DNA of 64,000 nucleotides from Escherichia coli (GCF_003334815.1 NZ_QOWO01000022.1); one strand, 5' to 3'; shown: positions 30,574 through 31,675, counted from the first letter of the stretch. The notes: generated by a model not told the origin, from the sequence alone. Numbers and translations are program-made.

Positions 30574-30773
30574 AATAAATCGCGGGCTGCAACTGTATTC
30601 AAATGGGAACGCTATGCGTGTAAGTTGTGCAGAGTGAGTATTGCTGTCAGGATGTTTTTTGCTGAGAATAGTGTAGTTTCCCCGGCAGGGAAATTTAAAG
30701 TCATGATTTGTCCTCCAGGTTATGTGTAATGTTTTCCGTTTTTAATATGTTTCTTGGGAAATGAGGAAATAGA

Positions 30774-31319
30774 GTGAAGGCTGAAAATAAAATATTAAAT
30801 CTTTTTCATGCGACAACAATGAGCAGAGGTCTGCAAATAATAAAAGATGGGAAAATAAGAACTGATGCTCCTTCTGTTATATGCTGGTCGTTAGAGACGA
30901 CACCAGGATGGATTTATTTATCGGATCAACTTGATAATGCGGTGCATTGGGGGAATAAAATAGCATGCCTTTCAAAAGATGAATTATTTTTCTATATTTT
31001 CAGAGTTCAGGTTCAGGAAGAAAATTGTTATCCTGATACAGATGATTTGCAATATGTGTCGTGGTTATCTCCTGAGGAGGCAGAAAACACAGACCTGTAT
31101 ACATGTCTTTCTCTTTGCCATTCCTGCCGAACTGACAAAGAACTGTATACAGGTTGTGAAATATCAGATTATGCAGTCCTTCCTGCAACAACACTGTATA
31201 CTGACAATTCAGGACATCCTCAATATGATATTGTTAATACGCTTAAAAAACATATAGGCAAAGATGAGTATAATCAGTATGAATCACTTCGTCAGCGTAT
31301 TGAATGGGTTTGTTTATAA
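30774..31319 (+). CDS. Hypothetical protein (181 aa), AT-rich insert antisense to the tra operon
   Basis: Plus-strand ORF in a low-GC block between traU and upstream tra genes. Contains FHATT...GLQIIKDGKI and Cys/His-rich CLSLCHSCRTD. No confident family assignment. Confidence 0.5.
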   Translation: MKAENKILNLFHATTMSRGLQIIKDGKIRTDAPSVICWSLETTPGWIYLSDQLDNAVHWGNKIACLSKDELFFYIFRVQVQEENCYPDTDDLQYVSWLSPEEAENTDLYTCLSLCHSCRTDKELYTGCEISDYAVLPATTLYTDNSGHPQYDIVNTLKKHIGKDEYNQYESLRQRIEWVCL

Positions 31320-31675
31320 GTGATCTTATTAAGATGTACAACAATAGATTTTCTTCTTTTGTTTTGTATAAATACCGGAGGAATATAAAAGAAACGGAGA
31401 CTGCAGAGACAGAGATGAAGTTGTTTTCCCCGTTTCCTTAATGAAAATTCAGTCAGGGGTGTGGCCGGATAATTATGCCGCGCACTTAATTCCCTGTTGA
31501 ACTGAAGTATTCCGGCAATATTCAGCAGTACGCCGGCCAGCCTGCCGTCATCATCCCGCAGGAAACGACGGAGTAGCCGGTGCTCTTCTTTGGCGGTACT
31601 GTCAGTTTTTCCGGCCAGGTGTGCGTGGATGAGTGTTATAAGCGTCTCCGGGGATATGCGGTGAATTTTCATCAT
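31292..31675 (-). CDS. Hypothetical tra-operon protein (127 aa)
   Basis: ORF co-oriented with the tra genes. The C-terminal third is low-complexity and overlaps the 3' end of the convergent 30774-31319 gene, so the true extent is uncertain. Confidence 0.3.
   Translation of the reverse strand: MMKIHRISPETLITLIHAHLAGKTDSTAKEEHRLLRRFLRDDDGRLAGVLLNIAGILQFNRELSARHNYPATPLTEFSLRKRGKQLHLCLCSLRFFYIPPVFIQNKRRKSIVVHLNKITYKQTHSIR

Follow-up and report, generated by a model that had tools for sequence, protein, structure and literature searches.

A predicted ADP-ribosyltransferase-fold gene nested antisense in the transfer operon of an Escherichia coli plasmid

The transfer (tra) operon found in a 64,000-nucleotide stretch of Escherichia coli DNA (GCF_003334815.1 NZ_QOWO01000022.1; hereafter the window, at its full length) is encoded on the minus strand, and a single AT-rich gene lies on the opposite strand between traT and traU. 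This arrangement raises the question of what the gene encodes, how long it has been part of the operon and whether transfer depends on it. An initial annotation made from the sequence alone had proposed a hitchhiker gene inserted into a conserved operon, with a loose resemblance to ADP-ribosyltransferase (ART) toxins. On the evidence of its predicted structure, the 181-amino-acid product is very probably an ART-fold enzyme that binds nicotinamide adenine dinucleotide (NAD+). Its gene, hereafter the ART gene, belongs together with two small open reading frames (ORFs) of the operon, p119 and p127, to an old and often-lost accessory module and is not a fresh insertion.

The antisense gene and its protein family

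The 181-amino-acid protein has no match in Pfam, NCBIfam or PADLOC, even at permissive thresholds, and none among the sequences of the Protein Data Bank (PDB). The PHROGs collection returned only a weak match (phrog_13493, function unassigned, E-value 2.8e-4), tblastn found no match in a phage collection and a profile search for annotated relatives returned only entries labelled as hypothetical proteins. In the literature, no paper mentions WP_001369268 and nothing relevant was found for IncK/traU/traT. A chance or non-functional ORF in an AT-rich spacer would be in keeping with the absence of a database family, with the uninformative label and with the lack of a consensus promoter. This explanation is effectively refuted by the remaining data. 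A word-indexed search detected homologues at 72%, 55% and 41–43% identity, and the plasmid-borne alleles have pairwise ratios of nonsynonymous to synonymous substitution rates (dN/dS) of 0.15–0.28, so that the gene is under purifying selection. A full HMMER scan (E-value ≤1e-3) gathered a family of 172 cluster representatives with conserved motifs, nearly all of them stand-alone proteins of 160–200 amino acids. Together with a very confident structural model and a conserved gene order, described below, these results establish that the ORF noticed in the initial annotation is a real gene.

Motif conservation was counted over an alignment of 126 family members, in which H12, T14, I22, Y48, A56, D88 (invariant), D90 and W178 are at least 90% conserved. 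H12 (96%), T14 (97%) and Y48 (98%) fall on the predicted strands 7–15 and 47–50, while D88, D90 (94%) and E/D91 (84%) were placed by sequence order. An H-x-T motif on the first strand and a tyrosine on the second are the hallmark of the H-Y-[E/D/Q] clade of ARTs, which comprises the PARP catalytic domain, Tpt1/KptA, DarT, Arr, DUF3990 and ART-PolyVal, and on this basis we place the window protein in the clade. It shares with these proteins the predicted fold, the two motifs and an invariant acidic residue further on, but differs from them by a helical insert (approximately residues 82–115, between the third strand and the S-x-R strand), by its own Cys/His set and by the lack of a profile match. 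The Cys/His cluster that had caught attention at the outset (CLSLCHSCRT) is indeed conserved, C85, C115, H116 and C118 being invariant, but only within the plasmid clade; the wider family commonly keeps only the Arg of S-x-R. These residues could form a clade-specific metal site or disulfide.

Structure prediction, which the initial annotation had recommended, gave a very confident model in which the ART fold begins at residue 7. Both the model and the fold searches revealed the split beta-sheet typical of ARTs. Among the best structural matches were TreX, DarT1 and TreTu, and the scores obtained were 8.6 for the Rhs toxin TreX, 8.4 for the heat-labile enterotoxin A, 7.9 for both DarT1 and PltA, 7.7 for KptA, 7.0 for Arr (19% identity, the highest in the list) and 4.9 for IcmQ. 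Scanning the 126 family members singly against Pfam gave further support, as three of them match the PARP catalytic domain (best value 8.7e-7), one matches DUF3990 and three weakly match ART-PolyVal. The tentative likeness to the ART fold thus proved correct, and the window protein would be an ART of the His-Tyr-acidic type, from a family not yet described, with presumed catalytic activity.

Within the clade, a direct comparison with the Arr-3 sequence indicated that the order of motifs parallels that of Arr, with Asp88 just past the third strand and S-x-R-T later. The protein might, as Arr does, modify and so inactivate a small molecule, be it an antibiotic, a toxin or a signal, the gene then serving in resistance or detoxification; we regard this as very unlikely. 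The protein is about 30–40 amino acids longer than Arr-ms, Arr-2 and Arr-3 and has dedicated partner genes, and Arr genes are found in integron cassettes whereas the ART gene is in a transfer operon. Membership of the Arr family itself was rejected, since hhalign gave Arr-3 only 3% against the family profile, through the first motif only, and Arr-ms is absent from the Pfam families matched by the 126 members. Identity with the DarTG system was likewise rejected, as we found neither a DarT (DUF4433) profile match nor an adjacent macrodomain antitoxin; moreover, DarT must bind DNA, whereas the window protein is acidic, as are its relatives (isoelectric point, pI, of 5.3–6.5). It also differs from the Rhs toxins in not being fused to an Rhs or other delivery domain.

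Organization, age and loss of the module

The region 30300–31800 (1.5 kb) is 100% identical to plasmid pEc631_1 (NZ_CP040264.1), typed as IncK2/Z, MOBP and MPF_I; window coordinates equal those of this record minus 31011 (features in Table 1). The gene order is traR-traS-traT-[119-aa ORF]-[127-aa ORF]-...-traU-traV-traW-traX-traY, and the neighbours of the ART gene are all on the minus strand. Its antisense placement is therefore as first described, with the correction that it is divergent from traU, 224 nt separating the two start codons, and convergent with p127, their 3' ends overlapping by the 28 nt already visible in the initial annotation. Because of this order, transcripts of the tra operon would have to read through the ART gene, in antisense, before arriving at traU. 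The GC content drops to 0.30–0.40 over approximately 30550–31450, compared with 0.55–0.63 in traU and traT, in agreement with the low-GC block reported at the ORF. A candidate ribosome-binding site (RBS) of the ART gene, GAGGAAAT, can be read from the sequence 5 nt ahead of the GTG codon. On the other strand, the stop codon of p119 and the start codon of p127 share an ATGA (31672–31675), an overlap which suggests that the two genes are translationally coupled. The p127 gene opens with two consecutive ATG codons, of which PGAP takes the second.

Table 1. Location of the features discussed in the text, in window coordinates (type A is defined below)
Feature	Coordinates	Strand	Remarks
ART gene	30774..31319	+	181 aa; GTG start; GC 0.36; pI 4.8; WP_001369268.1 in pEc631_1, labelled 'hypothetical protein'
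Type A-specific segment	30567..31290		724 bp; from just upstream of the traU RBS to the p127 stop codon; blastn junctions of the window vs pMS15236B and alignment
Divergent intergenic region, traU start to ART start	30550..30773		must contain the ART promoter and RBS and the traU RBS
p127	31292..31675	-	127 aa; basic, pI 10.8; same direction as the tra operon
p119	31672..32031	-	119 aa; motif F-x-D-F-F-I-R-R-Q-Q-F-I
traU	27505..30549	-	DotO/IcmB-type ATPase; downstream gene of the tra operon; from annotation
traT	32090..32908	-	upstream neighbour of the module; from annotation
Hairpin within the ART coding sequence	31088..31158		21-nt arms; repeat search and folding

Searches of Pfam, NCBIfam, PADLOC, PHROGs and PDB sequences, the last also with profiles, gave no match for the families of p127 and p119, and a fold search with p119 gave no significant relative. 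The N-terminal halves of p127 and p119 align with each other (hhalign probability 76%, E-value 2.3e-5), and the two are probably tandem paralogues. The C-terminal third of p127 had been suspected of being non-native. It is AT-rich (0.32 in the window), yet its sequence is kept in all the diverged lineages and in plasmids devoid of the ART gene; it is therefore native, and the suspicion has to be abandoned.

The module is not restricted to close relatives of the window plasmid. Statements on neighbourhoods refer to the Enterobacterales homologues whose flanks were readable, and all of these lie antisense in an MPF_I transfer region. The ART gene is found by a TraU-type ATPase gene and the same two small ORFs in Salmonella (loci L006–L008), in metagenomic plasmids (L009–L013), in Serratia (L026, L027) and in Enterobacter ludwigii (L028, L029), where its 3' end overlaps that of the p127-type ORF (121–133 amino acids) by 6–28 nt. 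A second E. coli IncK2/Z plasmid (L005, L018) carries the ART gene with an uncalled p127 homologue. Across these loci, identity to the window is 41–72% for ART, 36–66% for p119, 33–46% for p127 and only 46–74% for TraU. The same gene, antisense site and two neighbours are thus shared by plasmids with well-separated backbones, and a recent insertion is not supported: the position is old. In L011, L013, L026 and L028 (Serratia, Enterobacter and metagenomic plasmids), a 206-amino-acid ORF stands between the ART gene and traU, and p119 is preceded by genes other than traS and traT; the order of the trio is therefore kept while its neighbours vary. In every lineage, the GC content of the ART gene is 0.17–0.22 below that of traU (0.36–0.47 vs 0.56–0.65), so that the low value has persisted with the gene and does not indicate that it arrived recently. 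We also rejected a mobile cassette, either an insertion sequence or a miniature inverted-repeat transposable element, as the segment has no terminal repeats, is single-copy and found only on plasmids, and the region contains no Rfam element; the repeat search detected no flanking inverted or direct repeats at 30567 or 31290.

The linkage extends to a different operon. On the MPF_I plasmid of Rahnella sikkimica, the pil operon contains an antisense ART homologue (35% identity), flanked by pilN and by a 137-amino-acid ORF with which it is convergent and overlapping. A direct test ruled out this ORF as PilM and identified it as a p119 homologue (hmmsearch E-value 2e-8; hhalign 92%), the single partner copy at this place. 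The ART gene and a p119-type gene therefore move together, their geometry being kept in another operon, and p119 is the partner that stays linked to ART in both tra and pil contexts. Altogether, linkage of the ART gene to a p119-family gene is seen in at least six diverged lineages for the tra operon and, for the pil operon, in Rahnella.

Comparison with closely related backbones, also recommended at the outset, gave a patchy picture. Among 448 PLSDB records sharing the traU 5' end, 74 carry the whole block; the initial annotation was therefore right to regard it as variable, but not to regard it as a recent hitchhiker. The traT–traU interval occurs in several forms. Type A, that of the window, contains p119, p127 and the ART gene, with the 724-bp segment specific to this type. 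In type B (pMS15236B), p119 and p127 are present and an unrelated 157-bp traU leader replaces the segment, while type D (AR_0085) retains p127 and a truncated p119. Type C, found in IncI-gamma/K1 plasmids, consists of 294 nt with p119 fragments (profile positions 6–42 and 102–118, E-value 3.5e-14) joined to the B-type leader; in p15648-2 (IncI-gamma/K1, L003:4292-4525), for example, the 'empty' 294-nt spacer encodes N- and C-terminal fragments of p119. Full-length genes were counted by tblastn in 76 records for ART, 229 for p127 and 174 for p119, and approximately 218 more records hold only a p119 remnant, which implies that the IncI-gamma/K1 plasmids descend from carriers of the module. Given this remnant and the site shared with diverged plasmids, loss fits the patchy distribution better than gain, and the most parsimonious scenario for these sequences is a decay series from A to B to C, in which ART would have been lost first and its partners later. 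Of 5426 complete E. coli genomes, 78 contain the type A segment, in each case as one plasmid-borne copy of at least 99% identity and never on the chromosome.

The distribution also answers the question of transfer. In the IncI1 reference R64, traT and traU are 89 nt apart and the module is absent. Plasmid pMS7163B has the type C spacing (traT end 41207, traU start 41502), and its conjugation was measured, without the module, in a transposon-directed insertion-site sequencing study of I-complex plasmids (PMC10286972). Since pMS7163B still conjugates, and R64 also lacks the module, the latter is accessory and not needed for transfer. The relatives that have lost the ART gene, which are the majority, are typed as conjugative or have been shown to conjugate.

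As for RNA structure, the arms of the hairpin in the ART coding sequence are 86% complementary, with a folding energy of -26 kcal/mol on the plus strand (z -5.5) and -31.7 kcal/mol on the minus strand (z -4.8). Read on the minus strand, it would form part of the tra-operon transcript, shortly ahead of traU. The hairpin is absent at the equivalent place in other lineages, and a conserved RNA structure in the ART coding region was therefore rejected. A stem-loop at 30679–30695 folds no better than shuffled sequence. The divergent region between traU and ART is only 56–86 nt long in L006 and L010, compared with 224 nt in the window, and the regions upstream of ART could not be aligned between lineages.

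Possible functions of the module

We tentatively propose that the ART gene, p119 and p127 constitute a toxin-type plasmid conflict module, in which the enzyme is held in check by dedicated partners. We infer this from the strict linkage to the partners, the loss of ART before them, the occurrence of transfer without the module, the likeness to ART toxins and the conflict contexts of distant family members. In such a module, ART would ADP-ribosylate a cellular target, using NAD+. Since the enzyme is acidic, unlike the DNA- and RNA-modifying ARTs, this target would more likely be a protein than DNA or RNA. Either p119 or p127, or both, would bind ART and neutralise or gate its activity, and the role of the module, outside the transfer machinery, would be one of plasmid addiction, abortive defence or the poisoning of competitors. 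With ART and the tra operon transcribed convergently, the expression of ART might be coupled inversely to that of the transfer genes.

Known systems offer partial parallels. In DarT-DarG, ParT-ParS, TreX-TriX and TreTu-TriTu, an ART-fold protein is genetically locked to a small cognate partner, as observed here, and here too ART is lost more often than its partner. The window module differs from these toxin-immunity pairs in that its partners have no macrodomain or other recognisable fold and its genes are convergent and overlapping, not co-transcribed. As regards layout, the operons of pore-forming colicins contain an immunity gene antisense between co-directional genes, and the tra operon seems to follow the same plan, with one gene nested antisense and convergent in a co-directional operon, which by analogy would let the nested gene be expressed independently of the operon promoter. 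The resemblance does not extend to the proteins, which are unrelated, and the antisense gene encodes the immunity protein in colicin operons but a presumptive enzyme here.

Beyond the plasmid clade, the ART family is mostly found in Bacillota (Paenibacillus, Bacillus, Clostridium, Tissierella, Lactiplantibacillus), an affinity that may explain the low-GC composition of the gene. In Paenibacillus sp. 481, the homologue is directly downstream of a TIR-domain protein gene, in an island that also encodes AbiJ and a Lit-type peptidase; in Paenibacillus alvei, it lies in a region resembling a conjugative element, with a Toprim topoisomerase and a MORC-like ATPase; in Paenibacillus hubeiensis, it is near a Zeta toxin; and in Bacillus licheniformis it is carried, amid many small genes, by a 205-kb linear phage-like plasmid. 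All four contexts are mobile-element or conflict settings, compatible with either defence or counter-defence.

Several points weigh against the proposal of a toxin held in check by partners. The toxicity of ART and its binding to p119 and p127 are putative, as is the catalytic role of D88, which would follow from sequence order and the analogy with Arr. Neither p119 nor p127 was found near the four distant homologues described above, so that the partnership is specific to the plasmid clade, and no antitoxin, macrodomain or hydrolase fold was recognised in either protein. Linkage to a partner across contexts, a feature of type II toxin-antitoxin systems, is present in the tra lineages and in Rahnella, but the adjacent co-transcribed pair of such systems is replaced by convergent genes with overlapping 3' ends (6–28 nt). 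If the partners were produced only while the tra operon is active, they would serve poorly as a constitutive antidote. In the ART start region, neither a consensus sigma-70 promoter nor a terminator stood out above shuffled background. Finally, PADLOC detected no known defence system at the module; with PADLOC-DB 2.0, neither ART nor p127 matched a known anti-phage system, and p119 gave a chance-level match to DndH (E-value 0.027).

The position of the partners in the operon suggests another possibility, namely that the conjugative type IVB secretion system exports ART as an effector, p119 and p127 being its chaperone or adaptor pair or its immunity proteins. The effector would disarm defences in a recipient or neighbour, or be lethal to cells that fail to retain the plasmid or have no immunity. 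We consider it rather unlikely, although several observations agree with it. Lying within tra or pil operons, the partner genes are coupled through ATGA and would be made together with the secretion machine, and within the Enterobacterales the module is found only in MPF_I transfer regions. Furthermore, there are weak matches of some family members to ART-PolyVal, a domain occurring in proteins that conjugative elements and phages carry, the protein combines a small size with an acidic pI (4.8–6.5), and the partners are kept after the loss of ART in the manner of orphan immunity genes. I-type plasmids are also able to export proteins such as the Sog primase, which counts in favour of an effector. 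In its most specific form, an ADP-ribosylating effector encoded in a type IVB operon and exported through the mating channel with a paralogous escort or immunity pair, the hypothesis is improbable; if true, it would be a protein-level conjugation weapon against recipient defences or against plasmid-rejecting or non-immune cells, not described for I-complex plasmids.

The type IVB context also recalls the IcmQ-IcmR pair of Legionella, where an ART-like fold is encoded inside a Dot/Icm-type cluster with partners of about 120 amino acids, as in the window. By this comparison, the protein would be a non-catalytic, NAD-binding type IVB accessory, and the three genes would fine-tune the type IV secretion system. 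The comparison fails on several counts, which make such a role most improbable. IcmQ scores well under the catalytic ARTs in the fold search and consists of an N-terminal helical IcmR-binding domain followed by a C-terminal ART-like domain, whereas the fold of the window protein, starting at residue 7, leaves no N-terminal domain of the IcmR-binding type. Its catalytic-type residues are almost invariant. Its gene is antisense, and the relatives that have lost it, a majority, conjugate or are typed as conjugative. Identity with IcmQ-IcmR was rejected as well, neither the IcmQ profile nor its architecture being found.

The initial annotation had also mentioned defence and anti-defence cargo. Anti-defence genes of the leading region of conjugative plasmids lie next to oriT, in the part that is transferred first, and are co-oriented for early expression. 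The direction of transfer is known for IncI plasmids, and their tra block is late-entering. Gene order and this direction place the ART gene on the trailing side, in the traL–traY block, about 29 kb past nikB. This late-entering location, remote from the leading region, makes a classical, early-expressed anti-defence role unlikely.

Other genes of the window and significance of the module

The window contains other genes that may be of interest. Between trbA and the tra block are dqlB, a DinQ-like type I toxin gene (8509–8604, plus strand), and a gene for a serine-protease autotransporter of the S6 family (10158–14249, minus strand), a virulence cargo. A sulfatase-like hydrolase/transferase gene at 16642–19101 adjoins an ISKpn26 (IS5-like) transposase gene and may be truncated accessory cargo. 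A Hok/Gef gene is located at 20044–20196 and, directly beside excA, a 528-amino-acid protein with a TnsA-endonuclease N-terminal domain is encoded at 20334–21920 (minus strand), a place at which R64 has no counterpart. The gene at the position of Sog (38207–42223, minus strand) is annotated as an LPD7-domain protein of about 1338 amino acids, and its homologues in related loci match DUF5710 and LPD7. Lastly, a flotillin-family gene and an OB-fold (NfeD-like) gene are paired upstream of the pil operon (61958–64000, minus strand).

An ART enzyme in a conflict module of a mobile element is of a kind already well known. What appear to be undescribed are this particular ART family and a partner family without recognisable fold, as well as the convergent, overlapping antisense nesting in tra and pil operons and the patchy retention of the module in I-complex plasmids. 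These plasmids (IncK2/Z, IncB/O and relatives) spread beta-lactamase genes and virulence genes of Shiga-toxigenic E. coli in livestock and humans, and this exact gene is found in approximately 1.4% of complete E. coli genomes. A module that has been kept for long and yet repeatedly shed points to a conflict function with both cost and benefit, such as addiction, exclusion of phages or plasmids, or manipulation of the recipient, and such a function could affect which plasmids persist and spread. More broadly, the gene defines a new ART family, mostly from mobile elements and defence islands of Bacillota, together with a new family of partner proteins, and it illustrates the nesting of a gene in antisense within a transfer operon, an arrangement in which its expression could be tied to transfer by convergent transcription.
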